DNA from: a virus
Lineage: Duplodnaviria > Caudoviricetes
IMG/VR virus record: IMGVR_UViG_3300025835_000003
Span: 1 to 57,373 of that record
Direction: 5' to 3' (one strand)
DNA length: 57,373 bases
The translations under genes were made by a program, and so were the position numbers. The notes under the pieces were generated by a model. It worked only from the letters and a program-made list of their open reading frames with translations. It made no database searches and was not told the DNA's origin. Each line of letters opens with the position of its first letter. Positions within the stretch are counted from its first letter, which is position 1. Positions 11,007 to 28,390 of the stretch are shown in pieces.

Positions 11007-11187
11007 CAAAATCTCCTTTGCCTCGACTTCCCATAAGTTGTATAATCTCAAGTACAAATACGATAGGCCATACAAGAGCGTGCAATAGTATAGTCCTGTG
11101 TCGGATTACTTTATCACCTGGAGAATATCCCACTACCCATACCACAATACCACCTACAACATATATGATTAGCAGTGTAACCAGCAT
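10996..11187 (-). CDS. Small two-TM membrane protein
   Basis: IYVVG...ALVWP hydrophobic pattern. Confidence 0.6.
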   Translation of the reverse strand: MLVTLLIIYVVGGIVVWVVGYSPGDKVIRHRTILLHALVWPIVFVLEIIQLMGSRGKGDFDER

Positions 11188-11200
11188 AATGATGCTCTCA

Positions 11201-11605: not shown

Positions 11606-12302
11606 GTTCTTTCCATGTAGTGGAAGGCGTTCTCAGTATCCACAATAGAGAGGCCACCTCATCGAAAGCCTTCTCATATTCAGAATCACCGTAGAACTCT
11701 CTATATTTCTCACGTACAATATCATCCACTTTCCGCATATCTTCTTTATGTGGATTCAATAATTTGTGGGCAGTCTTGGGGCCTATTCCCCGGATGCCGG
11801 GAATGTTATCCGACACATCACCAACAAGCATCTGCGTGTAGAAATTATAGTTGGCATCTTCAAGGGATACATCATAATAAATATCCTTGACCCAGTTATA
11901 GTGATATCCCGGTATAGTATCCAGATCCTTATCAATGGATACGATGCAGGTACTTTTATCTGGGTGGCTGTATTGCTCAATGCCCAACGCATCGTCCGCT
12001 TCTATGCCATCTGTTATGGTGGCACCATGCACATCTACCAAATATTCCCGGATAGCTTCATAGTGTTCCGGCTTCCTTTCCGATCTCGTCCCTTTGTAAG
12101 GTTTGAGAGTAGCCAAATGATACCTGAAGTTGCTTGATCCGCTCAGGTAGGAACGATAGTCCTGCACACCAAGTTTTCCCAGTGCTGAATGGATCGTTTG
12201 CTTAACAGAATGCAGCGCAAACTCAACCGGTTCTCCCTCTGGGCAGGCGAATCCTATCCGGTAGCAAATGATGTCAGCATCTATTAAGGCGGTTTTTAGC
12301 AT
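11583..12302 (-). CDS. T7 gp6-like 5'-3' exonuclease
   Basis: IDAD, YKGTR, EADD, SIDKD, GDVSDNIPGIRGIGPK motifs. Confidence 0.92.
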   Translation of the reverse strand: MLKTALIDADIICYRIGFACPEGEPVEFALHSVKQTIHSALGKLGVQDYRSYLSGSSNFRYHLATLKPYKGTRSERKPEHYEAIREYLVDVHGATITDGIEADDALGIEQYSHPDKSTCIVSIDKDLDTIPGYHYNWVKDIYYDVSLEDANYNFYTQMLVGDVSDNIPGIRGIGPKTAHKLLNPHKEDMRKVDDIVREKYREFYGDSEYEKAFDEVASLLWILRTPSTTWKEHVPYRKK

Positions 12303-12330
12303 GGTGTCATTTGTTATCTAGTTATCCAGA

Positions 12331-12618
12331 TTATTTACGTAGATACTTTTTGAAGAACTCATATGTGCCAGGATCAGAATGGGCATATTTATCAATGTCG
12401 AGATACATCTTTCCATCCTTGTTTGATGCCCATGTATTTCCGAATTGCTTCTCACTTGACACAAAATCCTCCAAGTACGCGGCGTTGTCTATCGACATCT
12501 GTTGCAAAATGCCTCTGTCGAAAGCGCGGCGCCGTTGGTGTTCCTGCTTCTTGAAACTCTTGTCACTTGCGGATGTGCTGTATCCAAATATAGGTGTTTT
12601 CTTAAATGATTTTCCCAC
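12331..12618 (-). CDS. Small basic hypothetical protein
   Basis: MGKSFKKTPIFG...WASNKDGK; AAGGA RBS. Confidence 0.6.
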   Translation of the reverse strand: MGKSFKKTPIFGYSTSASDKSFKKQEHQRRRAFDRGILQQMSIDNAAYLEDFVSSEKQFGNTWASNKDGKMYLDIDKYAHSDPGTYEFFKKYLRK

Positions 12619-12639
12619 TGTAGTCCTTCCTTGTCCTCA

Positions 12640-14595: not shown

Positions 14596-14602
14596 GATTT
14601 AT

Positions 14603-15064
14603 TCATTCTCCTTGTGGTGCAATCTGTTCCTTCTTCGCCTCTTCTTCCTGTGCCTTATGATATTCCACATCATCCAAGCGTTCGTTGATCAACATCTGAG
14701 CTATAATAATATAGTTTACTATATCCAGGACTGAATCTAAACAAGATTCTTCCTTGACGGAAAGAGTTCCTTCATCGACAAACGTGTTGATCCGCTCAAG
14801 TTTGTCTTGGATGCGCAGCAAGACCCCCTTTACAGGATCGATCCCCAGTTTGGATGCTCCACGGAAGTTTCTGAAATGATCCCCACCACTGCTGTAGTCG
14901 TGGCTTTTTGCTAGCATCAGCTTCCGCGCTTTATCGCACAGTTCGGAGTGGAATGTGCTTAAGGCTGAAGGGGACACATTTGCTGGGCACTCCTTCGCTA
15001 CCCCTGATATTAGGATCGCGGCATCTTCCAACAAGGTGCTGTCTTTCTTATACCCTTCCATCAT
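14603..15064 (-). CDS. Nucleotide-modification-associated domain 1 (DUF1599-like) protein
   Basis: KSHDY...D.FRNF...GVLLRIQDKLER...DSVLDIVNY pattern. Confidence 0.7.
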   Translation of the reverse strand: MMEGYKKDSTLLEDAAILISGVAKECPANVSPSALSTFHSELCDKARKLMLAKSHDYSSGGDHFRNFRGASKLGIDPVKGVLLRIQDKLERINTFVDEGTLSVKEESCLDSVLDIVNYIIIAQMLINERLDDVEYHKAQEEEAKKEQIAPQGE

Positions 15065-15077
15065 CAAATCTCCTCCG

Positions 15078-15320
15078 TCAATCCCACAAGTAGCCAGGCA
15101 TCGTAGTTCCACCAGAACTGTATATCTTCAGTGCTCTTTGCACATCCTCTACAAACCATCCCTCATCCACTCTTGTGTTGATCCCAAAAATATCCTTGAA
15201 TCTTTCTGGATCTTCAAGGGAGTTCAGCAGTTTGCAGAACTCTTCTTCCGTCACTACCTCCAGACCATCCTTGGTCTGGTGGGTAGTCACACTCGGCTTC
15301 TTGTTGAAGTTACCAGCCAT
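15078..15320 (-). CDS. Hypothetical protein
   Basis: Fills the gap between the putative SSB and the Nmad1 gene. Confidence 0.5.
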   Translation of the reverse strand: MAGNFNKKPSVTTHQTKDGLEVVTEEEFCKLLNSLEDPERFKDIFGINTRVDEGWFVEDVQRALKIYSSGGTTMPGYLWD

Positions 15321-15987
15321 CGTTCTGATCGGCCGCGTCCTCTGGTTCGCCGGATACTGCCTTTGCTTCCGAGGATTGCGCAGGAACTGCCGGAGGAGTA
15401 TCCGTCTTGCCTGTTGCATAATTATAGAAGTCATTCGTCAATGCGTTACAGAGCAAGCAAAGCGCTTCAAATTGCCCTTTCTTTGCAGTAGAAAAGGGTA
15501 GCACGCCCGCTTGCTGAGCAACGTTGAGCAGGGCAATCGCCGAGTTTCGAGCAGCGTGTCGGCTGATCGTGTCCTCCCTGTGACTGGCCGACACCGCTGC
15601 GGGAGGATGGCGAGACACACCCCTTTCTGGGGGATTAGGCGCAGCCAGGACTACCTGCTCCACCTGCTGCGGGCGAGGCGGCGCGACGCGCTGTTGCGGG
15701 GCACGTCTTACTTGTGGGGGTGGACTCCTGCGGGGCGGCGGGGGTGGTGGTGCAGCGCTTTCCTCCCCATTCTCCCCATATACGTTCAAGCTGTTTGCTG
15801 TAATGTTGAAGTAACGTCCCTTTCGGGTGGCATCGAATTCTACATAGGAACCGATTCGGACACCCAGATCTTCCGGGTTGACGCGGCCCATACCATATAC
15901 TTGTCCATCTATTTCCAAGTTATACATAGTACCATAACTTGTTTCGTTGGGTTGGATGTTCGTTACGTAGCCTGCAAATTCTGACAT
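15310..15987 (-). CDS. Putative single-stranded DNA-binding protein
   Basis: OB-fold-like N-terminus, Pro-rich linker and acidic tail ending in W; directly downstream of the polymerase. Confidence 0.55.
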   Translation of the reverse strand: MSEFAGYVTNIQPNETSYGTMYNLEIDGQVYGMGRVNPEDLGVRIGSYVEFDATRKGRYFNITANSLNVYGENGEESAAPPPPPPRRSPPPQVRRAPQQRVAPPRPQQVEQVVLAAPNPPERGVSRHPPAAVSASHREDTISRHAARNSAIALLNVAQQAGVLPFSTAKKGQFEALCLLCNALTNDFYNYATGKTDTPPAVPAQSSEAKAVSGEPEDAADQNDGW

Positions 15988-15999
15988 AGTTCATATCTC

Positions 16000-17943
16000 C
16001 TAGTGTTCAGGATAATCGTCGTCGTCAAAGTCGTACTCATCACATTCCATACAATCTTCTTTGTATTGCTCTCCCCAATGGGAGCCCTTCTTCACATCCA
16101 CCGCAAGTGGAACCTTGAACTCATAATCATATACATTCTTGAGAAACATCTTTGTTCCCTCGATAAAAGCAAAGCGACAGAGTGACTCTAGTTCCTCCAG
16201 ATATTTGTCATCCGCTTCAAGGATAATCGAATCATGAACAGTCAATAACATCTTGGCTTTAGAGTGATCCATTGCGTGCCATAATATTGTGAACGCTATA
16301 GGAATGATCTCGCCCGTGGCAAATCCTTGTATAGGATAATTGTATACCTCCCGTCGCACATCCAGATATCCCCGGCTGTCCATAGTCGCTTTCGGCCAGT
16401 GGAACAGCATTCCATAGCGGGTTCGCAGATACTTTTCGTTTGCAACAAATAGTTCCCAGCGACTTTGTTCTTTGGCGATGTTAGCATATTTTCTCCTGAA
16501 GAACTCACAATACTTGCGCTCGGCTGGAGTCTTTCCGTTGCCGCCATAAAGAGGCATGAATGTGCATCGCTTGGCCTCCTGTCTCGTGGTCGGCTGGCCA
16601 CCTGCTGTTAGATACTCGGCTGAAATGGCGTGCACATCTACTCCTTCCTTGATCTCTTTCAGCGCTACAACGTCTTTGCAAAGATCTGCCGCACATCTGA
16701 ACTCTAGTTGTGATGCGTCACATTCCAGTATGCTCCATCCTTTCTTCCCTGCGCAAAAGAATTTCTTGTATTCCCTTGGTATGTTCTGTACTTGTGCTCC
16801 CTTCTCTTTCTTCATGCCAGGAATGCGCATCTTGCGCCCCGTGGCAGACAGCCGGCCCGTGTTAGTTATCCCTTGGTTGAGCCGGGGCCTAAACTTCCCA
16901 TCAAAGTGTTTGCAGATGAGATCAAAAAACTCTAGGTTTTTTGTGACCCTTGAATTCAGTTTGTTGAATTCCATATATGCCTGAAGAAAATCTTTTTGTG
17001 CTTGGGTCTTGGGCCGCAGTCTGAGTAAAGCATCCTGCGATGTACTTGCTTCCCCTCCCGGTGTGAGTAGCGGCTTTCCCCGCCCGGGATCTTTGGGCGG
17101 ATCAAATCCTAGGGATTGAAACAGGAATTCACGCAGTTGTTTGGGGCTGTTGAGATTGATACCTCCTGTAAGAGTGTCAAGGGTAGCAATAAGTTCCTTG
17201 ATCGCATTACTAGTGTTCAGCGATTCTTCAGCTACCCGCTCCTTGTCGAGATGAAGGAATCCTAGCTCCATATCAGCAATCGGTGGGCAGGCCATGAAGC
17301 GAGTGTAGGCAAGGTGCAGCATATCTTCGTCCATGAGACGTTTCCGCTGTAGGCGCATCAACCTGTGTGCAATGTGTACATCTCGGAAGCAATACTTTTC
17401 CACCCATGCTCCCGGAATGTCCGCAGTCTTGACACCCAGGCGTATCAATCCACCTACGATATCTTCCTTGGCTGGCAGACCATATCGATCTGCCAGAGAT
17501 CCAAGAGAAAGAGAATACCGTGCATTCGCTCGCAGTACCCACTCGGCTGTCAAGGTGTCCCACACCACCACGTCCCTGATGTCCAGTCCACATTGATGCA
17601 GCCATTGCAGTTCAAACTTTGCTCCGTGCGCAACGATAAACTTGGCAGCTTTGATATCCTTCAGCAATTCCTGCTGTTTTGTCACTCCTCCAAACTTTGA
17701 TTTCTTTTCTACAGCGTTCTCACCTTGCACAACATACCAGCACGCGCAGACCACATCGGCGAAAGGATTACCTGCCCAAGCAAATTCAGCGTCTTCGAGT
17801 GCGCGATCTTCTGGGACAGATAGCAAGGTCGTCTCGAAGTCAAGGACAACGTAGGGATATTCCGAATACAGGCGTTCCACCTGTGCTCGGTTCCTGCGCA
17901 AGGTTTTCGGAACCTCTGGTGTCTTGACTTTCATTATCATCAC
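16000..17943 (-). CDS. Family A DNA polymerase with 3'-5' exonuclease domain
   Basis: LDFETT and YCFRD (exonuclease); TGRLS; DASQLE (motif A), RQEAKRCTFMPLYG (motif B), TVHDSI (motif C). Confidence 0.95.
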   Translation of the reverse strand: MMIMKVKTPEVPKTLRRNRAQVERLYSEYPYVVLDFETTLLSVPEDRALEDAEFAWAGNPFADVVCACWYVVQGENAVEKKSKFGGVTKQQELLKDIKAAKFIVAHGAKFELQWLHQCGLDIRDVVVWDTLTAEWVLRANARYSLSLGSLADRYGLPAKEDIVGGLIRLGVKTADIPGAWVEKYCFRDVHIAHRLMRLQRKRLMDEDMLHLAYTRFMACPPIADMELGFLHLDKERVAEESLNTSNAIKELIATLDTLTGGINLNSPKQLREFLFQSLGFDPPKDPGRGKPLLTPGGEASTSQDALLRLRPKTQAQKDFLQAYMEFNKLNSRVTKNLEFFDLICKHFDGKFRPRLNQGITNTGRLSATGRKMRIPGMKKEKGAQVQNIPREYKKFFCAGKKGWSILECDASQLEFRCAADLCKDVVALKEIKEGVDVHAISAEYLTAGGQPTTRQEAKRCTFMPLYGGNGKTPAERKYCEFFRRKYANIAKEQSRWELFVANEKYLRTRYGMLFHWPKATMDSRGYLDVRREVYNYPIQGFATGEIIPIAFTILWHAMDHSKAKMLLTVHDSIILEADDKYLEELESLCRFAFIEGTKMFLKNVYDYEFKVPLAVDVKKGSHWGEQYKEDCMECDEYDFDDDDYPEH

Positions 17944-18263
17944 GCGGCGTCAGATGCTGAAACTTTGCCGGTAGCTTTATCCATGTTGTTAAGAGCAAAC
18001 GAAATAAACATCTCTAATCCTCGGCCCAGTGCGGCCAGTCTGTCTCCAATACCCTGTTCTAGCTGCTTCTGCGAGACGGTGAAGTAGTATCTGGTGCTAA
18101 CATTTTCAATGTTAACCTGATCTTCATATAGGGTGCTATGAGGAACATCTACTCCCCATAGGCGTTCCCAAGTATATTCTTCTGCATCCGGATCGAAGTA
18201 TACTGCTATCTGTACTTTGCGGGTGTCAACAGCATTGTTTTCAGCTTGCGTCGTATTCGTCAT
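17940..18263 (-). CDS. Hypothetical protein
   Basis: GAGGA RBS; overlaps the polymerase start. Confidence 0.6.
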   Translation of the reverse strand: MTNTTQAENNAVDTRKVQIAVYFDPDAEEYTWERLWGVDVPHSTLYEDQVNIENVSTRYYFTVSQKQLEQGIGDRLAALGRGLEMFISFALNNMDKATGKVSASDAA

Positions 18264-18579
18264 TGTCGCGTTCCTCTTCTGAAAGGGGTTGGAGTGTGTC
18301 ATAATCATCATCGTATAGCTTCTTGCGGCGTTCATATGCAAGCGTAGCTTTCTTCATACGTTCCAGGAATTGCTCATCTCCCGTATCGCCTGAGAAGAAC
18401 CATTCCGTATGTCGCATCGCCTTTGCTGTGTAATCTGCCAGCAATAATATCTTACGCAGTTCTCTATGTACTTCTGGGGTGAATGAAGTATCTGAATCCA
18501 TCGTAGCCATTAGTCTCGCCAGTTCATCGGCAAAGTCTATGACTGCGCTGTATCGATAATTGAATGCTCCTCCACTCAT
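18241..18579 (-). CDS. Hypothetical phage protein (MSGGAFNY type)
   Basis: Recurrent phage N-terminal motif and EWFFSGDTG. Confidence 0.65.
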   Translation of the reverse strand: MSGGAFNYRYSAVIDFADELARLMATMDSDTSFTPEVHRELRKILLLADYTAKAMRHTEWFFSGDTGDEQFLERMKKATLAYERRKKLYDDDYDTLQPLSEEERDNDEYDAS

Positions 18580-18938
18580 GTCGTTCCTATCTTTCTTCGT
18601 GGGCCTTTGATCATGTTGATTGCATCTCCATATTCCATTGGTCCAATATCCTCCAGCACCTTCCCTGTCTCTTCGTCCACAATATGAAACGTTGGATATT
18701 CTAAAGAACCTCCTCCCTCCACACCCGGTTCTTCTTCACACTTCACTACCACTAGTTTACCATCCCAGGTGTACCCGATGATATAGGTAGTATCCGCTCC
18801 TCGTATGAATCCCTCACCTGTTGTCAGGTGGATTAGATCGTTAGCGGAAAAAGGAGCATATAATTGCCGCTCTTTATTGGAGCCTGCGTTGGATGAATCC
18901 TGTTCGCTTGTCTTGTCGGTGGTAATCATGTTATCCAT
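18576..18938 (-). CDS. Hypothetical protein
   Basis: AAGGAG upstream; ATGA overlap downstream. Confidence 0.6.
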   Translation of the reverse strand: MDNMITTDKTSEQDSSNAGSNKERQLYAPFSANDLIHLTTGEGFIRGADTTYIIGYTWDGKLVVVKCEEEPGVEGGGSLEYPTFHIVDEETGKVLEDIGPMEYGDAINMIKGPRRKIGTT

Positions 18939-18967
18939 TGTTGTAAGTGGACGCTCCTTGATGAGTG

Positions 18968-19173
18968 AATATCTAATATAAAATATATTATATTAAGAGC
19001 TATGTATTAAGAGCAAGAGCTTTTATTTATATAAATATATATATACTAAGAGCTTCTAATATAGTTCTATAGAACTATGTAGCTTCTTGGCTTCTAATAG
19101 CTTCTATATATTATATATATATATATATATTATATTAAAAGCTTTTATATTATATATTATATTATATATATAC
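18968..19173. repeat. AT-rich island with AAGAGC repeats, (TA)n runs and the palindrome ATAGTTCTATAGAACTAT; possible origin
   Basis: Seen directly; non-coding gap downstream of the helicase. Confidence 0.7.
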
Positions 19174-20406
19174 TCAAGACTCTATGTCAGACAGTTTGGA
19201 AAGAGCCTTGTTTATACGCACCGGGAAATGCCCATGATCTCCCATTCCTAGCTTATTTTTAGGCAGTGAAAACATCCGTAAATCTTCTTGATCATATCGC
19301 ACATCAATACCTATTCCAATCATCGCATCTATTTGCCCTTGAATACCTGTTTTTGAGCTATCGATATCCTCCATGTCGAGTATCAATTTATTAGCCGCAG
19401 ACTCTCCAGCTTGGGTGACAGACACAGTGACAATGTCTGCTTGCTTGGTTATGTTTCTAATACCTGTGGCGGCTGCTTCCAATTGCTGTGTCTTGTTCTC
19501 GGTAGAATGTTTGGCCCCCACATGAATGTTTCTTAACTGATCTACAACCAGCCACCTAGGCTGCTTCTTTTCCACCAGATCCCTTATCTGGTTCAATGAT
19601 CCTGGGGCCATGCCGAACAGAGCAATGTTCTCCAACCCATTGTCACGTGCTCTGTGGAGCGCCCTGCGGGGATCTCTCATCATCTCCCTAGTAGGGTAGC
19701 CAGACATGTTGGAAATCATTCTGGAGGCGATACGCGCTGTCCTATCCTCATTGATGATGTAGATCCCAGGTACTCCTTGGTGGGCAAAGCCACAAGCCAT
19801 CGTGATCGCGGCTGCTGTCTTGCCGGCCTCTGGCCGGGCAAAGAGCAACAGGTGATCTCCCCCATTGACTCCTCCACCGAGGCGAGAGTTCAACGACAAG
19901 GGATAAACCTTCAGCGTACGTTCAGAGTTCCCTCCTCCTTCAAGCAAGGTTTCTGTTGAAAGTAAATCAAAGGTTTCGATCCCATCTTCCTTGACTTCAT
20001 CAAGGGTAGTAGCGGAATGAACCCGTTTGAATTCCTGCAACAATTTGTCAGCCTCTTGATAGTTCTTTCCGGCCAATGCAATGGCTAATTCGGCGCCTAT
20101 CTGATCCCTTTTCTCCTCCAATATAACTGCTTCAACATTCTCTTTCGATATTGTAAATGCAGCGGCTTCATCCAGCAATTCTCTATAGGCATCAACAAGT
20201 TTGTTCGAAGATATTTTAGTGGCAAGCATCTGCAACAATAACGTTTTGTTGATTTGCTTTGCCTCTGGATCTCGTTGATAGTACTCCTTCATGTATTGCA
20301 GCAAGACTTGTGTGTCTCGTTCATACTTCTTTATGTCAATGTATCGCGCTATCTTTGCAAAGGAATCTCTGCTTTGCAATGCCAGCGCCAGTAATTCTTT
20401 ATTCAT
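19174..20406 (-). CDS. DnaB-like replicative helicase
   Basis: ARPEAGKT Walker A, NED, VVDQ Walker B, SKTGIQG, PKNK motifs. Confidence 0.92.
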   Translation of the reverse strand: MNKELLALALQSRDSFAKIARYIDIKKYERDTQVLLQYMKEYYQRDPEAKQINKTLLLQMLATKISSNKLVDAYRELLDEAAAFTISKENVEAVILEEKRDQIGAELAIALAGKNYQEADKLLQEFKRVHSATTLDEVKEDGIETFDLLSTETLLEGGGNSERTLKVYPLSLNSRLGGGVNGGDHLLLFARPEAGKTAAAITMACGFAHQGVPGIYIINEDRTARIASRMISNMSGYPTREMMRDPRRALHRARDNGLENIALFGMAPGSLNQIRDLVEKKQPRWLVVDQLRNIHVGAKHSTENKTQQLEAAATGIRNITKQADIVTVSVTQAGESAANKLILDMEDIDSSKTGIQGQIDAMIGIGIDVRYDQEDLRMFSLPKNKLGMGDHGHFPVRINKALSKLSDIES

Positions 20407-21386
20407 TTATGTGGGTATCCAATGCGTTTCGAGCTATGGGTATTCGTACTGGAAAGCGGATATAGTAAGTCTCTTATGGCGGCTTCCGGCAAGTCCTTTA
20501 TATCTTTGTCCAGACCGATCGGAATGGAGGTATGCCATATTCCCTTTGATCTGTAATGTATGCAGTATTTGACTGCCTTGACAAACGCATCTCTATCGAG
20601 TGCAATGTATACTGTGTCAAATACTTTACCTATTTCCTTGGCAAAAGATTCTGAAATGTGCGTGCCAAGCAAAGCAATGGCTGGCAAGTATCTTGATATC
20701 TTAACGGCGGAATACATATCTTCCACAAGTACTACGCTATTCATACCCTTGTTCTTGGTGCCTTTGAAATAACAATAGCTGTTTTTACCCTGTTCCTTTG
20801 CAGCCTGGTCAAGAAGTGTGAATGCCTTGCACACCTTGGGCAATGGATGTGTGCCTGTGGCCTCATCGGGAGAGGATTCTTGATAGGTGGGAGGAGAAAA
20901 TAGACGCAATTGATAGCCTAGGTTTTGGAAATCAAGATCATATAGTGGCATCTTGATGTAGATAGGCTTTGACAGCACAGGGCGGACAAGGTTCCCAGGT
21001 GGAGATAGATATACCACCTCCGCCCCAAGCTGCTTCAGGTGAGATTCATCCATGTGATACTTTTCCTTGAGCGCATCGAAGACAGCCCTTTCTTTATGCT
21101 TTTCACATGGTGTTAGAGACGTCTCGGCAAACCCCCGCTCTGGTGATCGGGTTCTTGCGGGCAAAGACTTCCGGCCCAATGCTTGTGCGGAAACAGTTGC
21201 CCGACCCTTCAGCCCACAGGAATTTCTATAACAGATAAACAACAGCGCGTTACCTTCTCGCGTAACAGCGAAAGCCCTGTCTTTATTGGCGCCGCCACGG
21301 CAAGCAGGGCATTCATCGGTGAGTTCTGTCTCTCCGTCTGCCAACCGAGAGAAACGTTCTCGGATCTCTGTCTTGTAATTGTTCAT
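20403..21386 (-). CDS. DNA primase (Zn finger plus TOPRIM)
   Basis: CPAC...CYRNSC; LVED; ALLGT; ALDRDA; KDIKD motifs. Confidence 0.9.
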   Translation of the reverse strand: MNNYKTEIRERFSRLADGETELTDECPACRGGANKDRAFAVTREGNALLFICYRNSCGLKGRATVSAQALGRKSLPARTRSPERGFAETSLTPCEKHKERAVFDALKEKYHMDESHLKQLGAEVVYLSPPGNLVRPVLSKPIYIKMPLYDLDFQNLGYQLRLFSPPTYQESSPDEATGTHPLPKVCKAFTLLDQAAKEQGKNSYCYFKGTKNKGMNSVVLVEDMYSAVKISRYLPAIALLGTHISESFAKEIGKVFDTVYIALDRDAFVKAVKYCIHYRSKGIWHTSIPIGLDKDIKDLPEAAIRDLLYPLSSTNTHSSKRIGYPHK

Positions 21387-21826
21387 CGTATGGATTCCTT
21401 CAGTATTCCGCGTATGCGACTGGTGTAAATGATCCGCCGGCATCCGGCTTCCTTCAATGCACTGTAACAGGCTGCACATGGGCGGCAATCTGCCAGGTGT
21501 CCGTTCCGGTCAAACCTTGCTATGTACACTTGTGCATCTCTCGTATCATGGTATCCGGTGAGAGTGAGTGCGCGAATCTCTGCGTGCATGTTTGGTGCCG
21601 GACACTTTCGCCCGACCCGCTTGTTCCATTTGCTTTGGACAGGATGCGTCTTTACGATATTGTGAGAATGCCCTGCCACGTAATTGCCAATGACAATGTA
21701 GCATCCTATCTTAACACGCCAATGGTTAGACCGCAAGCTTTCTTCCAGGGCCAAGGCAATGTATTTTTTGTCTTTTGTGGAGGGTATCACACTGAGTGTC
21801 CAATTTGTAGTGCAACATGAAATCAA
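21383..21826 (-). CDS. Cytidine/deoxycytidylate deaminase-family protein (start uncertain)
   Basis: HAE...RPCAAC zinc motif. Confidence 0.85.
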   Translation of the reverse strand: MISCCTTNWTLSVIPSTKDKKYIALALEESLRSNHWRVKIGCYIVIGNYVAGHSHNIVKTHPVQSKWNKRVGRKCPAPNMHAEIRALTLTGYHDTRDAQVYIARFDRNGHLADCRPCAACYSALKEAGCRRIIYTSRIRGILKESIR

Positions 21827-21835
21827 GCAGCATTC

Positions 21836-22132
21836 TTACTTCGACACTGTGCAGGCAAAGCCATCCCTCGGCGCAGCATATGCCTGGCTGCCATCTGTAA
21901 ATGTCAGGATCATCCACTTTCCTGTTACTTCTACCCGTGTGACACCATTAACTTCGGTTTCGTTATTGGCATCCTCACATTTGACTTTTTGTTCAGAGCC
22001 TTGGATAGCAAGGCGGTATCCATGTTTAACGTCATTAACGATAATAGGAATGAGTCCATACAAGAAGAAGAAAATAAGTAACCCTGCCATTACTTTGACT
22101 AATGGTGATGTGATTGCCAATTGATTATTCAT
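21836..22132 (-). CDS. Membrane-anchored hypothetical protein
   Basis: GGAG RBS; N-terminal TM segment. Confidence 0.6.
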   Translation of the reverse strand: MNNQLAITSPLVKVMAGLLIFFFLYGLIPIIVNDVKHGYRLAIQGSEQKVKCEDANNETEVNGVTRVEVTGKWMILTFTDGSQAYAAPRDGFACTVSK

Positions 22133-22364
22133 TGGTGGAAATCTCCATATCAATAGATGTGGTTGCCGGCCCAGTGTGATGCAATGGTGCTACTAGGTCA
22201 TTGAGTGCAAGGATAATTGTCTTACCCGTAATGTCTTCGGAGTGTGAGTTCCCCATCTTCCGGTAGACCCTATGATCTTTCGACATCTCGAACACTCCAT
22301 TTTTACGTTCGGCGAAAATGCGAAACAATTGTCCATCCTTTAGTGATTTGAATGTGAGCATCAT
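22125..22364 (-). CDS. Hypothetical protein
   Basis: AAGGAG RBS. Confidence 0.6.
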   Translation of the reverse strand: MMLTFKSLKDGQLFRIFAERKNGVFEMSKDHRVYRKMGNSHSEDITGKTIILALNDLVAPLHHTGPATTSIDMEISTNE

Positions 22365-22391
22365 GGTGATTATCTTCTCCTTTCAATATGA

Positions 22392-22464
22392 TAGGCCCGC
22401 CTGGACTCGAACCAGGAACCTTAGGATTATGAGTCCTTTGCTCTTGCCGTTGAGCTACGGGCCT
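22392..22464 (-). tRNA. tRNA with CAU anticodon, probably tRNA-Ile2 (elongator Met not excluded)
   Basis: AGGCCCG/CGGGCCT acceptor stem, TAGCTCAACGG D arm, CTCATAA loop, GGTTCGAGTCC T arm; CCA not encoded. Confidence 0.88.
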
Positions 22465-22476
22465 ATTGTGGATGTG

Positions 22477-22650
22477 TCAATCCAGCAAATCTAGTGCATC
22501 CAAAAAGTAATCAGGTTCCATGCCAATTTCATATAAAAATTCTGGCACGTCCTGCTCGTAGTCATTGTTCAATAGGTCACACAATTCTTTCTTGGCCTGA
22601 CTATACAGAATACCTTCACGTGCTGCAAAAGTTTTGACTAGATCATTCAT
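22477..22650 (-). CDS. Small acidic protein (57 aa; absent from the ORF track)
   Basis: MNDLVKTFAAREG...EIGMEPDYFLDALDLLD; GAGGA RBS; 14 D/E residues. Confidence 0.7.
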   Translation of the reverse strand: MNDLVKTFAAREGILYSQAKKELCDLLNNDYEQDVPEFLYEIGMEPDYFLDALDLLD

Positions 22651-22672
22651 ATCAATTGTCCTCGATGTATGT

Positions 22673-22945
22673 TTACATGAATAGGGACACTAGCGTCCAT
22701 ACTCCTCCCACGCACAATAGTGCGAGAATGCCTCGTGCCACGAGAATGAGTATTGTGGTGTGGCGCTTGGGACGCCTAAATCTTCGCAGGGTCCTTGTTT
22801 GATTCCCGATGTGTTCGGCTATGGCAATGCACCAAGCCGGCCTGATTGTAGGGTTCACCATATCATCCTCCTTACTATACACACTTTCCAAGTGTGTGTC
22901 AAGTATTTTTGTTCCTGGCAGCTTCAGAGTTTTAGCTTTCATCAT
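22673..22945 (-). CDS. Early hypothetical protein with C-terminal TM
   Basis: MMKAKT start shared with 25754..25960. Confidence 0.6.
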   Translation of the reverse strand: MMKAKTLKLPGTKILDTHLESVYSKEDDMVNPTIRPAWCIAIAEHIGNQTRTLRRFRRPKRHTTILILVARGILALLCVGGVWTLVSLFM

Positions 22946-23427
22946 GGGGCTTTCTCCTGTTGTTCGCCTTCGGCTATGTATAGGTTTGCAAATTTACTGA
23001 CTTTGGCGCGCTCGCATGTTGCCGCTGCGTGTTCAATGGCTTTGATATGTCGCTCATTCGCCGTCTTGATTGCTCTTGCATAACGGGCGGAAGCATCTTC
23101 ACGCCATGTTTGAAGCGAAATGTCATATTCCGATTGATATCTTTTCCATGCTCGACTCGCTTCGCTGTTGAACTTTTCAAGATCAACGACCTCGTTAGTG
23201 TGCAATATCTTCTCTATGTGCACACGCGCCGTCTCAAATGCAGCAAAGCCTTCAGGTTGCAGAAGCATTTACGCCGCCTGGCGCCAATCGAATTCGCCAG
23301 CATACTCCCTTGCCAGTTCGGCGGTCACTTCGACCGAGTCCACGAACGTGCGCAGGAACTTATCTTCCTGTGCTGGGTATACATTGGCATTCCGTAGCTG
23401 ATCAATTGTCAGAAGTCTGGATTTCAT
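22942..23427 (-). pseudogene. Early family-A paralogue split by an in-frame TAA at 23269-23271
   Basis: MKSRLLTIDQLRNA...DWRQAA*MLLQPEGF aligns with intact paralogues (FWAAEHFLRPEGF). Confidence 0.7.
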
Positions 23428-23464
23428 GGTACTGGCCTCGCTTACAATAGAAAGTGTTGGCAAC

Positions 23465-23500
23465 ATTCTAGCACGATAGGATGAACGTAGGATGAACGTA
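23465..23500 (-). promoter_or_regulatory. Extended -10 promoter (TGcTAGAAT) with an 11-bp tandem CGTTCATCCTA repeat over the -35 region
   Basis: TAGGATGAACG twice on the plus strand at 23477-23498. Confidence 0.55.
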
Positions 23501-23502
23501 TG

Positions 23503-23880
23503 TCAGGAATCGCCACCCTCGGCGATGTATAGACGGGCGAAGGCGCGAGCTATAGTCTGCTCGTGCTGCCGTAAGATCGTGGCATTGATATGAGTGGGTA
23601 CACGGCATAGTTCACCGCGGGCGTCTTTGACCGCGCGCAGCCTTTTCCGATCCGCACGCGCGACAATCGCATTAAACCGAGTAAAACCTTCAGGCCGCAA
23701 AAAGTGTTCCGCTGCCCAGAAGCAGTTAAACTTTTGCGCATGATCTGACGCTAGCTCGATCGTCACTTTGACCGACTCGTCAAACATCTCGTGGAATAGG
23801 TCGCGTTGTGATTGGCACGCTTTGGCATTCTGTAATTGTGCGAGTGTGAGGGTTCTGTATTTCTTCGTGGTAGTTGTCAT
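23503..23880 (-). CDS. Early family-A paralogue
   Basis: RTLTLAQLQNAKAC..Q.DLF...SVKVT...ARAFARLYIAEG; AAGGAG RBS. Confidence 0.75.
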   Translation of the reverse strand: MTTTTKKYRTLTLAQLQNAKACQSQRDLFHEMFDESVKVTIELASDHAQKFNCFWAAEHFLRPEGFTRFNAIVARADRKRLRAVKDARGELCRVPTHINATILRQHEQTIARAFARLYIAEGGDS

Positions 23881-23927
23881 AGCTGTCTCCTTAGGGTCAC
23901 GGCCTGACGAATGTCTGATCATGACTC

Positions 23928-23973
23928 ATTGTAGCGCGTGTGCGACAAGTGTCAATAGGGAAAGCTGAACAGG
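23928..23973 (-). promoter_or_regulatory. sigma70-type early promoter TTGACA-N16-TACAAT with a 24-bp upstream repeat
   Basis: CCTGTTCAGCTTTCCCTATTGACA is identical at 23950-23973 and 26680-26703. Confidence 0.75.
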
Positions 23974-24056
23974 AAAAAGACAATTCTGAACGTAATTTCT
24001 GCGTTGGCATGGTTTTTGTCAATACAAATATCGTGCCAGCGTGACAACAGCAAGAT

Positions 24057-24084
24057 TTGACAGGCGGCGCGACAGCGCTACACT
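24057..24084 (+). promoter_or_regulatory. sigma70-type promoter TTGACA-N16-TACACT, antisense to the R-M remnant
   Basis: Consensus match at the left junction of the captured segment. Confidence 0.55.
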
Positions 24085-24233
24085 ATCATGCGCGCTTCCC
24101 GGCTCACCTTGGTCTTCATGCCGTGCGCGTCGATGCCACCCACCACTTGCTGGATTTCGGCCCAAAGCCGCTCGCGGTGGACCAGCAGATATTCCAGCCC
24201 GTTGAGGTGCGAGTAGACCTCGGCGATTTTCAT
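24078..24233 (-). pseudogene. Truncated BstYI/BglII-family restriction endonuclease (51 aa; absent from the ORF track)
   Basis: MKIAEVYSHLNGLEYLLVHRERLWAEIQQVVGGIDA...KTKVSRE matches the R.BstYI N-terminus as I recall it (MRIVEVYSHLNGLEYIQVH); starts 10 nt after the MTase stop. Confidence 0.85.
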
Positions 24234-24243
24234 GAACCGCGGC

Positions 24244-25152
24244 TCAGATAGGCTTCACGTCTCCTTCGATCCACGGCGAGCGGGTCAAGGACTTCCCGGC
24301 GTCGGCCGGATCGAAGACAGGAGTGTTGCGGGGACGGATGCGAAGATTACCCGAGGCGGCCGCCCGGATGCGGTCGACGGCCATGTCGGCGTACTCCTTC
24401 ACCAGTTCCGCACCCGCACCGCGCCGGCCGCACCGGACTGCCGCCGCCATGGTGGTGCCGACGCCCGCATAAGGATCGAGCACCCACTCGTCGGGCCGGG
24501 TCAGCGCCAGCACCAGGCGCTCCACCAGCTCCACGGGAAACTGGCACGGGTGACCGGTCTTCTCGACATGGTTGCTCTTCACGTTCGGGATGATCCAGAC
24601 ATCGCCCGGGTTCTTGCCGAGAGGATTGCAGGAATACTGACCGGCCTTCGGCCCCTTGAAGTGCTTCTTCCCGGGGTACTTCTGCGGCACTCGGATCGGA
24701 TCCACATCGAAATGGTAGTCGTCGCCCTTGGTGAACCAGCAGATGGTCTCGTACCGCCCCGATAGGCGCCGGGTGCAGTGCAACCCGTGCTCGAAATGCC
24801 AGACGATCCGGTTGCGGAGCTTGAGGCCGTGCGCGGCAAACAGCGGATACAGGGCAATGTCGAGCGGAACGATGCTGCTCGCCTTGCCTTTCTCCACGTA
24901 GTTGCCGACCTGCCAGCACAGGCTGCCGCCGGGCGCGAGTACTCTCACGCACTCGGCGATGACCGGAGCCTGCTCCTCCAGATAACGATCCAGGCTCATC
25001 CGGGCCTCGTAGGCCTTGCCGACGTTGTAGGGCGGCGATGTCACTACCAACTGGATCGACTCGGACGCAATCTGGTCGAGCAGTTCGCGGCAATCGCCGT
25101 GGTAGGCCACCGCCCGCGCAGCTGGGTCGAATCTTGTCTTTACTTCTAGCAT
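24244..25152 (-). CDS. Beta-class amino-DNA methyltransferase, M.BstYI/M.BglII-like (probably N4-cytosine)
   Basis: TSPPY catalytic motif precedes HPCQFP and the DPYAGVGTT SAM motif; GC-rich. Confidence 0.92.
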   Translation of the reverse strand: MLEVKTRFDPAARAVAYHGDCRELLDQIASESIQLVVTSPPYNVGKAYEARMSLDRYLEEQAPVIAECVRVLAPGGSLCWQVGNYVEKGKASSIVPLDIALYPLFAAHGLKLRNRIVWHFEHGLHCTRRLSGRYETICWFTKGDDYHFDVDPIRVPQKYPGKKHFKGPKAGQYSCNPLGKNPGDVWIIPNVKSNHVEKTGHPCQFPVELVERLVLALTRPDEWVLDPYAGVGTTMAAAVRCGRRGAGAELVKEYADMAVDRIRAAASGNLRIRPRNTPVFDPADAGKSLTRSPWIEGDVKPI

Positions 25153-25238
25153 GGTAGCCCCTCGTTGCTGAAGTGTCGCTCACGTCCGTGAAATCTAAAC
25201 CCATCGACAAAATCGTTAAAATCTATGTTCCGGTACAT
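25146..25238 (-). pseudogene. Truncated phage gene (MYRNIDFNDFVDGFRFHGRERHFSNEGL) abutting the MTase
   Basis: Strong GAGAGGA RBS; the frame runs into the MTase start and stops after 30 codons. Confidence 0.55.
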
Positions 25239-25297
25239 GCCTAGTCCTCTCGTCTGTGGTAGTGTGCGGCGCTTTGCCCGACACCACATCGGGTTAA

Positions 25298-25456
25298 TCA
25301 ATGCCAACCTCTGAGGTTCAGCAACACAGCCGCAGTCATAAACGGCCACAGCAAGGCGTAAAGTAGCTCAGTATTATTATACGATCCCGGAAGATGCCCG
25401 GATCCATAGACTGAGATAACACCTACCACGTACACAATCATCAATGACAGCATCAT
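25298..25456 (-). CDS. Small membrane protein (52 aa; absent from the ORF track)
   Basis: MMLSLMIVYVVGVISVYG...LLYALLWP; GAGGA RBS. Confidence 0.65.
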   Translation of the reverse strand: MMLSLMIVYVVGVISVYGSGHLPGSYNNTELLYALLWPFMTAAVLLNLRGWH

Positions 25457-25469
25457 AGCAGTATCCTCA

Positions 25470-25757
25470 TTATTTGGCTATATCGGCTTTAGCTTGCTGG
25501 TCCATCATGGTGATGACATCGGACAACACAAACGCCGCATCGCGCAGCATATCGGCGCGTATGGCGATATATGTCAGGCGCTCGCTCCGGCGAAACTCAT
25601 CCGACTGGACCGGTGCCACACGTGCGGCCTCAGCGGCCTCATCTGAGAGCATGCCCCATGCACGGCAGGCTGCATAAGCGGCCTCCTCGGCCTGTTCAGC
25701 TGCCCTGCGGGCGAGCTCTTCGAGGGATGCGCTGGCGGTTGTGGTGGGTGTCGTCAT
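25470..25757 (-). CDS. Early family-B paralogue
   Basis: SLEELARRAAEQA...SDEF.RSE.LT.IA.RAD.LRDAA, shared with 26319..26579. Confidence 0.75.
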   Translation of the reverse strand: MTTPTTTASASLEELARRAAEQAEEAAYAACRAWGMLSDEAAEAARVAPVQSDEFRRSERLTYIAIRADMLRDAAFVLSDVITMMDQQAKADIAK

Positions 25758-25960
25758 GGTGTTCTCCCTTCGTTCTTGTAGAAGTCAATCCAGCAATTAT
25801 CATGGTTGTACACCCCCCAATATTCGCCAATCCGCATAGGCAAGGTTCCGCGTGCACACAACCAGACGCTGACACCTTGCAGCGGTCCGCCATTCAGTCG
25901 GTAGAGCTTTTTACGCCCAGGTGTGAGGGGCTTTAGTTTAAAGGTTTTAGCTTTCATCAT
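25754..25960 (-). CDS. Early hypothetical protein
   Basis: AGGAG RBS; coupled overlaps on both sides. Confidence 0.65.
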   Translation of the reverse strand: MMKAKTFKLKPLTPGRKKLYRLNGGPLQGVSVWLCARGTLPMRIGEYWGVYNHDNCWIDFYKNEGRTP

Positions 25961-26313
25961 GGGGCTTTCTCCTGTTGTTCGCCTTCGGCTATGTACGCGT
26001 GAGCGAAGGCGCGCGCAACAGCCCGCCTATACAGGGCCAAGAATTTTGCTAAGTCTACCGAGCTGCTGACCTTTATTACCATAGGTATAGTTCTCTGATC
26101 CGCGCGGGCGACAGCTACATCAAACCGAGCAAGGCCTTTTAGACTCAGCAAGTTCCTAGCCGCCCACTGCCAGTCGAAGACATTGTGGAAGCTGGCAGCG
26201 CGTCGGGCCGTTACCTTGACCGACTCGCCGAACAGGCTGCGGAACAGGTCACATTGTGACTTCCATGCTCCGGCATCACGTAACTGCTTGAGGGTTAGAG
26301 TTCTCGATTTCAT
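25957..26313 (-). CDS. Early family-A paralogue
   Basis: MKSRTLTLKQLRDAGA...YIAEGEQQEKAP. Confidence 0.75.
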   Translation of the reverse strand: MKSRTLTLKQLRDAGAWKSQCDLFRSLFGESVKVTARRAASFHNVFDWQWAARNLLSLKGLARFDVAVARADQRTIPMVIKVSSSVDLAKFLALYRRAVARAFAHAYIAEGEQQEKAP

Positions 26314-26318
26314 GGTGC

Positions 26319-26579
26319 TTATTCAGCTTGCTGGTCCATTATGGCAATGACACCAGACAGCGCGTAGGCTGCATCGCGCAGCGTGTCGGCGCGGACGGCG
26401 ATACGTGTTAGGTGTTCGCTCCGGCAGAACTCGTCCGAATGGATCGATGCCGTACGCGCGGCGCTGGCGGCTTCATCCGAAAGTGTGGCCCATGCGCGCC
26501 ATGCGAGATAGGCGAATTGTGCGGCCTGTTCGGACGCTCTACGTGCAACCTCTTCGAGCGACATTTCGTTGGTCGTCAT
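26319..26579 (-). CDS. Early family-B paralogue; first gene of the early arm
   Basis: AAGGA RBS; paralogue of 25470..25757. Confidence 0.75.
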   Translation of the reverse strand: MTTNEMSLEEVARRASEQAAQFAYLAWRAWATLSDEAASAARTASIHSDEFCRSEHLTRIAVRADTLRDAAYALSGVIAIMDQQAE

Positions 26580-26656
26580 GGCGTTTCATCCTTTCGTTGG
26601 TGGTGGTAGTGGCGGTGCTTTGTGACACGTGGTGGGTCATCCCTCCACGTGTCGTA

Positions 26657-26703
26657 AAGGTATCATGGTCTGCCCAGCATGTCAATAGGGAAAGCTGAAC
26701 AGG
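26657..26703 (-). promoter_or_regulatory. Main early promoter TTGACA-N17-TACCTT with extended TG
   Basis: Consensus match; shares the 24-bp repeat with 23950-23973. Confidence 0.75.
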
Positions 26704-26738
26704 GCTTAAATGATGTTAGGCAGATGGTGTGAGCATGT

Positions 26739-26757
26739 TTGCACCAGGTTGGTGCAA
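26739..26757. promoter_or_regulatory. NtrC-consensus site TTGCACCAGGTTGGTGCAA
   Basis: Exact TGCACC-N5-GGTGCA. Confidence 0.65.
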
Positions 26758-26827
26758 TCCTTACATCCTTACATTCTTACATCTCGCGCATCTATCGCCG
26801 GCCATCTGCCGGCGCATCTCTTGCCCG

Positions 26828-26852
26828 AGCTGTTGCAGCATATGCAACAGCT
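26828..26852. promoter_or_regulatory. Operator-like palindrome AGCTGTTGCA-N5-TGCAACAGCT
   Basis: Perfect 10-bp arms; regulator unassigned. Confidence 0.55.
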
Positions 26853-26890
26853 GCATCCGGTATATGGTCTGCACACAATATACATGTAGA

Positions 26891-26990
26891 TAGACAGGTC
26901 TGTCTACCATGATGTATGAGGAGATGCAGATGGATAGACAGGTCTGTCTGCATGGGCATGGAAAAAAAGAAAAATAGACAGGTCTGTCTA
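26891..26990. repeat. Three copies of the palindrome TAGACAG-GT-CTGTCTR (TetR-type operator-like)
   Basis: Copies at 26891-26906, 26935-26950 and 26975-26990. Confidence 0.85.
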
Positions 26991-26994
26991 CCAT

Positions 26995-27013
26995 AATGTA
27001 ATGTTATAACATT
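26995..27013. promoter_or_regulatory. Zur-box-like site AATGTAATGTTATAACATT
   Basis: 17 of 19 positions match AATGTTATAwTATAACATT. Confidence 0.6.
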
Positions 27014-27107
27014 CCATATTTCAGAATGGGGGGAGTAGCCCTTCGATTTGGCAGCCCTCCCCCGGCGGGGGTGGGGTACACACCCACTTACAAGGCTCAA
27101 TTTCCAG

Positions 27108-27235
27108 TTAATGCACCTGCTAATGCACATGCTAATGAACATGCCTAATGCAAAGGATAATACTGCCGGCTAATAGAGCCTATTAACTGCCGGCTAATTA
27201 ACTACCGGTTAATATATTCCACCTAACTGCTGGCA
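27108..27235. repeat. Short repeat clusters: TAATGCACATGC-type and TAACTGCCGGCTAA-type
   Basis: About four degenerate copies of each. Confidence 0.7.
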
Positions 27236-27255
27236 AACTATTTACGATTATTGGG

Positions 27256-27282
27256 GAACTTATGGGGCCTTTAACTGTCTAA
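27256..27282 (+). promoter_or_regulatory. sigmaE/AlgU-type promoter GAACTT-N16-TCTAA
   Basis: Exact consensus and spacing, upstream of the first late-arm gene. Confidence 0.7.
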
Positions 27283-27345
27283 GATGTATTCCCGCTTTTC
27301 TATCCCTACTGCCAGAATAGCATAGAATATAGCTCTGGATACCAT

Positions 27346-28128
27346 ATGCCTCTAAAACCTTCTGAATCGCTCTGTGACGGCCACGAGGGTCTTACCCTAG
27401 CCAGGGTACTACCCACCCCCTGCGTGGACCCCCTAGCTCGATTCAGGAGCCTTAAAGACCGTGTTGGGGAGTCCTTGCCCTCTCTTGTGGTGACGGAAAA
27501 GGATGCAAAGGAATATCGGTTGGGGGTCATGCCCAAGCATTTCTGGTCATCGGTACGCCTTTCTCCAGCCACTAAGGCATTGATTGAGAAGGGACAGCGG
27601 GTAAGAACTTACAACTTTCGAGCGCTTCCCTTGAAGCGAACCAAGAGTGTGAAGGCCAACTGGAAGCGCGCTTCGGTGCGCAAGCAGGTAGAGGATCAAT
27701 CACGTATACGGTCCAGGAGGCGAGACAATGTTCGAGTGAAAACCGATCCCGCCTACTCGTGGCGCAAGTATCGCCTGCGGGCCAGGCGAAAATGCCCAGA
27801 CCTTCCCTTCGATATTTCCAAGGAAGATTGGGATAGGGTCTTCTTGAAGACTCTTCAAGCAACGCCCAACGGGCGATTCCCGGCGATCCGCCGAATAGAT
27901 GGCTCTTTGGGATATACTTATGGAAACTTGCTGTTCTGCGAACCTGTGACTCCTGGGATAGGGGGTAAGCTTGGAAGCACTGAAGGGCGTATCTTGAAAG
28001 CTCTCAAAGAAGATCTTAGAGAAAATAGAAAGCGTTTTACTACTTATGATTCTTTATTGGAATATATAAGAACCAACAGCCATTATAACAAACTAAAGCA
28101 ATATATGGATATTTATTATATTCTTTAA
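27346..28128 (+). CDS. Basic protein with degenerate HNH-like homing-endonuclease motif
   Basis: RARRK...FDISKEDW...RRIDGSLGYTYGN pattern; Zn-binding cysteines not evident. Confidence 0.5.
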   Translation: MPLKPSESLCDGHEGLTLARVLPTPCVDPLARFRSLKDRVGESLPSLVVTEKDAKEYRLGVMPKHFWSSVRLSPATKALIEKGQRVRTYNFRALPLKRTKSVKANWKRASVRKQVEDQSRIRSRRRDNVRVKTDPAYSWRKYRLRARRKCPDLPFDISKEDWDRVFLKTLQATPNGRFPAIRRIDGSLGYTYGNLLFCEPVTPGIGGKLGSTEGRILKALKEDLRENRKRFTTYDSLLEYIRTNSHYNKLKQYMDIYYIL

Positions 28129-28131: not shown

Positions 28132-28390
28132 AGCATGTATGTATAGCTTGCATGTATAGTCTGCATGTATAGAAGCTTCTAAGAGCTTCTAAGAGCTTTT
28201 ATATATAATATATAATATATATATATATATACACAGCTCTATAGAGCTGTGTTAAAAGCTCTTAAGAGCCAAAAAGCTCTTAAGAGCTTAAGAGCTTTTA
28301 ATATATATATCTTTTAAAGATATATATATATTATATATATAATATATATTAAGAGCTCTTAAGCTTTTTATAATTATAGTTTAAGAGTTT
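28132..28390. repeat. AT-rich palindromic island with AAGAGCT repeats
   Basis: GCATGTAT x3; palindromes ACACAGCTCTATAGAGCTGTGT, AAGCTCTTAAGAGCTT and TTAAGAGCTCTTAA; (TA)n runs. Confidence 0.8.

Follow-up and report, generated by a model that had tools for sequence, protein, structure and literature searches.

Why would a phage keep, at the point where its two gene arms diverge, a few hundred base pairs crowded with what look like binding sites for unrelated bacterial transcription factors? The question arises from the window analysed here, the complete IMG/VR virus record IMGVR_UViG_3300025835_000003 (57,373 bp; linear by classification, with a completeness of about 90%), in which an earlier note had flagged positions 26690-27030 as a dense array of such sites. 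The flagged region sits inside a 766-bp gap (26580-27345) between the early and the late arm. Judged from its sequence, the phage is a lytic podophage distantly related to Xanthomonas phage DES1 and Stenotrophomonas phage StenR_269, its nearest cultured relatives (TerL 46-49% and DNA polymerase 41-42% identical); the LUZ24/PaP3 group is farther off, with a TerL identity of 37%. The best explanation that we can offer is that the region, which is non-coding and heads the early operon, is a control region with near-consensus sites for at least three unrelated host regulators, an account that we hold to be somewhat likelier right than wrong. With the same modest confidence, we propose that host regulators would bind here and that their binding would matter to the phage.

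The array stands out from shuffled sequence by several measures. All five features described in the earlier note were recovered in place, and the region holds six distinct perfect palindromes (arm of at least 7, loop of at most 5) compared with a mean of 0.16 in 1000 dinucleotide shuffles, none of which reached six; comparison with shuffles was a check that the note itself had proposed. Tiles of 341 bp with at least three such palindromes number 5 of 168; one of them, starting at 26599, takes in the left part of the region, and the remaining four fall in two AT-rich, low-complexity regions. The triple palindrome, TAGACAGGTCTGTCT(A/G), occurs at 26891, 26935 and 26975, a count reached by 0 of 100 shuffles, and the palindrome with 10-bp arms, AGCTGTTGCA-N5-TGCAACAGCT at 26828-26852, has a single match in the window and none in 100 shuffles. 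The statement that the region holds no credible coding sequence also stood, in that the open reading frames (ORFs) inside 26690-27030 score like wrong frames (-0.07 to -0.66 per codon, compared with -0.335 ± 0.189 for wrong frames and 0.235 ± 0.115 for coding chunks).

The host whose regulators might be involved was approached through an insertion sequence of 1604 bp (7581-9184), which lies where the two arms converge. It has perfect 17-bp inverted ends, encodes a DDE transposase (DUF772 and DDE_Tnp_1) and has a G+C content (GC) of 69%, compared with about 45% for the phage. Related transposases (65-76% identity) are found mostly in genomes of Burkholderiales and Rhodocyclaceae, and one such genome, G001, was therefore taken as the centre for order-wide pattern searches. 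The host searches for the TetR, Zur and NtrC patterns used reversed-pattern controls, and the site totals for NtrC and Zur are our own counts. Two genomes, G297 and G029, count towards the totals of those searches that included them, and none of our specific claims depends on either. On this sequence evidence the host clade is likely the order Burkholderiales.

Five sites, which we assign to three regulator families, are packed into 275 bp of the region:

26739..26757, no strand: NtrC-box palindrome, exact to TGCACCAnnnTGGTGCA, the consensus of PMC8743547; unique exact match
26891..26906, no strand: O1, putative host-type TetR-family operator TAGACAGGTCTGTCTA, exact (pattern scan and host-order comparison)
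26935..26950, no strand: O2, the same putative operator with 1 mismatch, the last base being G (pattern scan and host-order comparison)
26975..26990, no strand: O3, the same putative operator, exact (pattern scan and host-order comparison)
27000..27013, no strand: Zur-box-type palindrome AATGTTATAACATT (motif scan and host loci)

The TetR identity of the triple palindrome is added here and was absent from the earlier note. By sequence, the three palindromes match the operators of a host TetR-family repressor that belongs to a conserved divergent TetR/DUF1348 gene pair. With at most one mismatch, TAGACAGGTCTGTCTA was found in 21 of the 401 genomes searched in the order of G001, and these 401 genomes hold nine exact copies where uniform chance would give about 0.3. 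Six host genomes have paired sites 31-41 bp apart, and the spacings in the phage are 44 and 40 bp. We looked at ten distinct host places, comprising eight loci from the order search, one that was fetched and one from another order. A TetR homologue adjoins the operator at eight of them and a DUF1348 gene at eight, both at seven and neither at one, so that one or the other gene lies beside nine of the ten. Pfam found TetR_N in both of the two proteins tested for it and DUF1348 in all four. At four host loci the TAGACA of the left operator stands 17 nt 5' of a TAGNNT hexamer (-10). At one host site (L260) the identity between phage and host extends to 20 nt, past the palindrome, and then stops, which argues that the phage is not carrying a captured host fragment. 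In a second order, searched around G404, the operator was rarer (1 of 251 genomes, compared with 13 of 401).

The likeness to the host pair thus covers the same 16-20 bp palindrome, comparable distances between sites and a half-site that also serves as a -35 element; the difference is that the phage has three operators and neither a tetR nor a DUF1348 gene, and tblastn found no homologue of either in the window. DUF1348 is an NTF2/SnoaL-like family, described as uncharacterised in the passages of PMC4608573 cited here. Our initial reading, an ordinary promoter-operator and terminal region of a phage in which the three palindromes were operators of a phage-coded repressor, was revised after the operator matches in the host order. 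The 16-mer has eight single matches in IMG/VR, which is the chance level, and none of these records resembles the window. In one host genome (L255, on G039:C31) there are three copies of the operator in the TetR/DUF1348 gap, at 1450, 1501 and 1527 in the locus, an arrangement like the phage triplet.

A Zur-like box had been reported at 26995-27013, and AATGTTATAACATT lies within it, at 27000-27013. With at most one mismatch this pattern occurs in 35 of 251 host-order genomes. Ten loci were returned, four of them from low-GC genomes, one inside an ORF and five intergenic in genomes with a GC of at least 0.45. Three of these five intergenic matches lie either directly 5' of CobW/COG0523-family genes (two) or between DUF1826 and ZnuA genes and directly 5' of the latter (one), and the neighbours of the remaining two have no family. 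CobW/COG0523 and ZnuA genes are hallmarks of the zinc-uptake regulon. From its sequence and these neighbours, AATGTTATAACATT matches a Zur box of the host type.

The exact NtrC consensus that the earlier note had pointed out is likewise present, as TTGCACCAGGTTGGTGCAA at 26739-26757. Its core (26740-26756) is the sole exact match in the window to the 17-bp consensus TGCACCAnnnTGGTGCA printed in PMC8743547. Among 151 host-order genomes, the pattern with at most one mismatch has 211 sites in 97 genomes, compared with 27 sites in 24 genomes for the control, an 8-fold difference. When up to three mismatches are allowed the pattern is not enriched in the window (5 matches compared with a mean of 2.79; 13 of 100 shuffles reached 5), so that only the exact copy stands out. 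By these counts the NtrC motif is real, and under selection, in the host order.

How might such sites act on the phage? Three promoter candidates lie in or beside the array:

26657..26685, minus strand (read 26685..26657): P_E1, main early promoter candidate, TTGACA-17-TGaTACCTT; 14.1 bits by our own matrix, rank 5 in the genome, directly 5' of the first early gene
26877..26906, minus strand: P_E2, second leftward candidate, TAGACA-18-TATATT; 10 of 12 matches, 10.7 bits, with its -35 inside O1
26975..27004, plus strand: P_R, weak and conjectural rightward candidate, TAGACA-18-TAATGT; -35 in O3, -10 overlapping the Zur box

The near-consensus sigma70 promoter of the earlier note is P_E1, which our matrix places fifth best in the genome. 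Other strong leftward promoter-like sites occur inside the early arm, at 23955 and 22902, and this pattern fits transcription of the early genes by the host RNA polymerase from leftward promoter-like sites. P_E2 has the same layout as the host TAGACA-17-TAGNNT promoters. The mechanism that we therefore favour is one in which the host TetR repressor and Zur would gate auxiliary transcription in both directions, from two weak back-to-back promoters that point outward from the edges of the operator triplet. The leftward one would be P_E2, its -35 covered by O1. The rightward one would be P_R, whose -35 falls in O3 and whose -10 is overlain by the Zur box; P_E1, farther left, would stay constitutive. 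Replicating genomes would in addition soak up low-abundance regulators, and such titration is likely because every replicated genome adds five sites. It would probably be a side effect and may be the main purpose.

Two other accounts give titration a larger part. In the first, the region would be a protein-free device for manipulating the host, in which a compact set of high-affinity sites on the first-entering DNA, multiplied by replication, would both set early and late auxiliary transcription according to the zinc, nitrogen and TetR-ligand state of the host and deprive the host of NtrC, a TetR repressor and Zur. The loss of these regulators would switch on zinc import along with further genes that the phage needs, and the phage would have a natural, multi-factor version of Fur titration, which is a laboratory trick. 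We regard this account as doubtful. A little less likely again is that the sites are mainly decoys, with hundreds of replicating genomes titrating Zur, the TetR repressor and NtrC to little effect on the phage promoters; host zinc uptake and the DUF1348 gene would be derepressed and the nitrogen response damped. Most sites do lie far from the strong P_E1, three copies of one high-affinity operator would suit a sink, and multicopy decoy sites retune native genes in E. coli according to the portion of PMC7826281 drawn on here. However, the -35 elements of two promoter candidates fall on O1 and O3, an arrangement also seen in the host divergent pair, which suggests direct control, and Zur and NtrC have a single site each.

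Several results weigh against the preferred account, in which host regulators would control transcription from this region, and they are best seen together. The raw count of TAGACAGGTCTGTCTA shows no excess over the reversed control (29 sites compared with about 30), and the argument for TetR therefore rests on exact copies, pairing and gene context; the genome-wide count of the Zur pattern shows none either (48 sites compared with 45 in 251 genomes), so that the case for Zur rests on gene context. At six NtrC-type host loci, the eight proteins tested included no textbook nitrogen gene (no glnA, glnK or amtB; two are Gcw_chp). No sigma54 promoter was found in 26500-27400, where 0 of the 21 GG-N10-GC candidates lie (at most 3 mismatches to the short consensus motif). 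P_E1 is 55-330 bp downstream of most sites, which is too distant for simple repression, and P_R, although the best rightward candidate in 26600-27350, scores a weak 7.6 bits. The earlier note had proposed looking for similar arrays at the termini of related phages. No such array is present in the corresponding regions of StenR_269, DES1 and PaP3, where six stretches have 0 palindromes and two longer stretches have two apiece. No DNA match to the window was found in the phage collection, which leaves no close relative for a test of conservation. A phage regulator may lie in the part that is missing from the record. The half-site TAGACAG/CTGTCTA occurs six times in the intergenic gap (one at 27275) and nowhere else in the window, where 3.6-5.5 would be expected, and the hexamer TAGACA occurs 7 times outside the gap compared with 15-23 expected; this is mild evidence that the TAGACAG word is avoided outside the gap, although 95 of 7443 comparable 7-mers are equally absent. 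Lastly, we infer from sequence both the host and the binding of its proteins to the phage sites. The insertion sequence has no near-identical copy in five genomes that carry exact operators, and so does not pin down the host.

Not every motif of the region has a counterpart in the host order, and the earlier note is in this respect supported in part. Of the five motif classes that it took for host transcription-factor sites, the triple palindrome, the Zur-like box and the NtrC box match host cis-elements, and the 10-bp-arm palindrome has no such counterpart. Four repeat elements of the region have no assigned regulator:

26618..26659, minus strand: inverted repeat with two CACGTG cores 21 bp apart (19-nt arms, 84% complementary), at the early transcript start
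26757..26783, plus strand: three tandem 8-bp repeats with a CTTACAT core (repeat family D6)
26796..26814, no strand: palindrome CGCCGGC-N5-GCCGGCG flanked by GCATCT/CCATCT words (repeat/palindrome scan)
26828..26852, no strand: 10-bp-arm palindrome (pattern scan; no host counterpart found)

The 10-bp-arm palindrome has matches in 147 of 301 genomes, with a control that is also frequent (not tallied), and its three closest matches lie inside long ORFs. The CACGTG pair occurs in 4 of 201 host-order genomes compared with 16 for the control and so has no counterpart; it could be either a 5' hairpin or an operator. As for the IclR-like sequence, ATTCCATATTTCAGAAT is present at 27011-27027, as reported, and proved to be a weak palindrome only. 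It has 67 sites compared with 18 for the control in 201 genomes, counted irrespective of gene context.

These motifs bear on the possibility that the array is bound by proteins of the phage itself, whether early proteins that are ORFans or a regulator encoded in the 10% that the record lacks, with the likeness to host operators being due to shared specificity or chance. Most early ORFs have no known family, the record is incomplete, and no host counterpart is seen for the tandem repeats, the CACGTG pair or the palindrome with 10-bp arms, so that some phage-specific binders are likely in any case. As a general explanation we nevertheless find phage-coded binders distinctly unlikely. That the earlier note recognised no matching regulator in the phage agrees with our searches, in which Pfam recognised no DNA-binding or helix-turn-helix (HTH) regulator and no TetR domain in the 43 ORFs scanned, and tblastn gave no match to the host TetR protein. 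Moreover, the missing part of the record is located at the tail-fibre end of the late arm, and chance is unlikely to have put three independent likenesses to host elements into 275 bp.

Could the region instead be chiefly a terminal, packaging or replication element, such as a terminal repeat, a terminase or nuclease site or an origin, whose palindromes serve DNA processing? Two features to the right of the operators are relevant:

27028..27085, no strand: G/C-rich element with a hairpin at 27055-27075; a similar GGGGGTGG-type element is at the same place in DES1
27108..27245, plus strand: direct-repeat arrays, four copies of CTAATGCAC at a 12-bp period and then three to four of ACTGCCGGCTAAT (families D2-D4)

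The direct repeats are probably phage cis-elements for packaging or replication. In several relatives a genome end is placed where the arms diverge. The linear record of StenR_269 has both its start and its end in the divergent gap, and its termini were set with PhageTerm according to the part of the authors' account used here (PMC10747016). In phage tf, terminal repeats of 186 bp have been mapped at the bench, and transcription runs in two converging units (PMC3517423); the PaP3 record likewise starts in the gap between the arms. A G/C-rich core of the GGGGGTGG type is found just 5' of the first late-arm gene in this phage (27028-27085), in DES1 (L004, 12120-12323) and in StenR_269 (L002, 7370-7440), and in StenR_269 it abuts the mapped right genome end. 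A scan of more distant relatives for GGGGGTGG was dropped, as it found mostly TerL coding sequence or G-rich flanks. By analogy with these phages, the G/C-rich element is a possible site of the physical terminus, the physical genome end would probably lie just to the right of the region, at about 27030-27090, and the region would plausibly be near the first-entering end, as StenR_269, tf and PaP3 suggest. Contigs of four sequencing runs span 26564-27576 without any difference and are uninformative on the termini.

Together with the StenR_269 element, the direct repeats and the folding of the region as single-stranded DNA (z = -5.96), these ends speak for a terminal element. An Rfam scan gave no match near thresholds. 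Such an element would, however, leave the identity with host operators and their gene contexts unexplained. The ends of the relatives have no such palindromes, and better origin-like AT-rich repeats are found elsewhere, at 18960-19170 and 28150-28390. We consider a chiefly terminal role improbable, a shade more so than phage-coded binders, and note that a terminal element and control by host regulators may both hold, for different parts of the gap. The two AT-rich intergenic stretches are dense in TAAGAGCTT words and long palindromes, and in StenR_269 and DES1 similar AAGAGCTT repeats follow the first late-arm gene, which is the matching position. The two stretches could be origins or phage-specific promoters.

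The earlier note had put forward a physical function, namely that host proteins on the first-entering end would cap it against exonucleases or ratchet the DNA into the cell. The plausible nearness of the region to the early end, by the analogy above, is in keeping with this, and in phage T5 the binding of host DnaA to the injection-stop region has been proposed, as given in the part of a preprint cited here (10.1101/866236). Here, though, the end is placed by analogy and the sites would begin tens to hundreds of base pairs from any end, and internal binders would not stop an exonuclease at the tip. There is also no cluster of DnaA boxes, with 0 matches in 26690-27030 and 96 in the window compared with 104.6 expected. 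We give this function very little credence.

The genes around the array are organised as follows. Minus-strand genes from 9202 to 26579 form the early and replication arm, whose products include a DNA methylase, a dCMP deaminase, a primase, a DnaB-type helicase and a family-A DNA polymerase, as well as a ribonucleotide reductase, a T7-type exonuclease and endonuclease I. The arm for lysis, packaging and the virion occupies the plus strand from 27346 onward and wraps to about 7579; it encodes a lysozyme, the small and large terminase subunits, the portal, the major capsid protein, a 2370-aa virion protein and tail fibres. The phage is found in groundwater, aquifer and hot-spring metagenomes. 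The two genes that flank the gap are:

26319..26579, minus strand: first early gene, 86 aa, ORFan (ORF list, positive coding score, paralogue of 25470-25757, no Pfam or PHROG family)
27346..28128, plus strand: first late-arm gene, 260 aa, basic (positional counterpart of StenR_269 WQZ00994 and DES1 UFK09583; weak nuclease leads only)

Comparisons of these neighbouring proteins gave little. The structure model of the 260-aa protein has a pLDDT of 41 and is unusable, PDB sequence searches with three neighbouring proteins returned nothing useful, and the Atlas gave only sub-threshold nuclease and Imm5/YdhT leads. The 260-aa protein has no relative in IMG/VR, and tblastn of the first two early proteins against phages found no match. 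The best relatives of TerL reach no more than 47% identity (best segment) in IMG/VR and 49% in metagenome contigs.

The first early genes (23503-26579) are duplicated, the 86-aa gene at 26319-26579 resembling the 95-aa gene at 25470-25757 and the 118-aa gene at 25957-26313 the 139-aa gene at 23503-23922. One metagenome run has a variant that joins 25738 to 26564, as recombination between early paralogues would give. The joints 25738>26564 and 25995>26680 of run X7 were considered as a module boundary and rejected, since they look like paralogue recombination or short chance overlaps. The stretch 24000-27000, which holds the first early genes and the methylase, has a GC of 54-63% compared with about 45% for the rest of the phage, and this suggests an early module of separate origin. 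A tRNA-Met gene (anticodon CAT) lies within the early arm at 22390-22465 on the minus strand. No RNA polymerase family was found in the phage by family searches that included the 2370-aa virion protein. This protein (45749-52861) has a weak metallopeptidase-like stretch and a weak match to 'virion structural protein' only. For its counterpart in StenR_269, the authors of that work ventured a role as a virion RNA polymerase (PMC10747016), and nothing found here backs that. A reading of the palindromes as N4-like hairpin promoters was dropped, as the 2370-aa protein has no RNA polymerase family.

Is there any precedent for such a region? Known cases of a phage borrowing a single host regulator include LexA, Fur and IHF, and also NtcA, PhoB and DnaA. 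The earlier note knew of no description of such a system, which is too strong a statement, because the T5 injection-stop region with its DnaA boxes and the NtcA sites of cyanophages are precedents. In the parts of the cyanophage work cited here (PMC3037559), NtcA and Pho-box promoters show lytic phages carrying sites for global regulators of the host, so that phage genes track its nutrient state. There, however, 1-16 NtcA sites per genome are scattered and serve one or two regulators, whereas here five sites assigned to three families, including a triple TetR operator, lie within 275 bp. The T5 region, in the portion of the preprint used here (bioRxiv 10.1101/866236), is also a long non-coding and first-entering stretch that is dense in repeats and palindromes, with proposed binding of a host protein; in contrast, it has eight ordered DnaA boxes conserved in 25 relatives, and the present region has no DnaA cluster, an array that is not conserved and an end placed by analogy. 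Podophages of the LUZ24/PaP3/tf type (PMC3517423) share the two arms transcribed from the ends to the middle, the host sigma70 promoters and the lack of a phage RNA polymerase, but no array of host-regulator sites is reported for them, and the authors state that temporal control awaits phage transcription factors. The early/late switch of phi29 and the OR region of lambda, as generally known, likewise have several operators flanked by divergent early and late promoters; the proteins that bind those operators are encoded by the phage, and no such protein was recognised here.

A literature search on NtrC and phage promoters, on phage decoy sites and on DUF1348, conducted mostly at the level of listings, found no such array and no natural decoy array of a phage described. 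What would be new, as judged from the sequence, is that a lytic phage has sites for three unrelated regulators, with the TetR operator in triplicate, crowded into 275 bp. If this is true, the phage would be wired into several signalling systems of its host, or would be draining them, by DNA sequence alone and without a regulator of its own. Operator mimicry may also serve as a pointer to the host clade of an uncultured phage; in this case it would point to the order Burkholderiales, in agreement with the insertion sequence.

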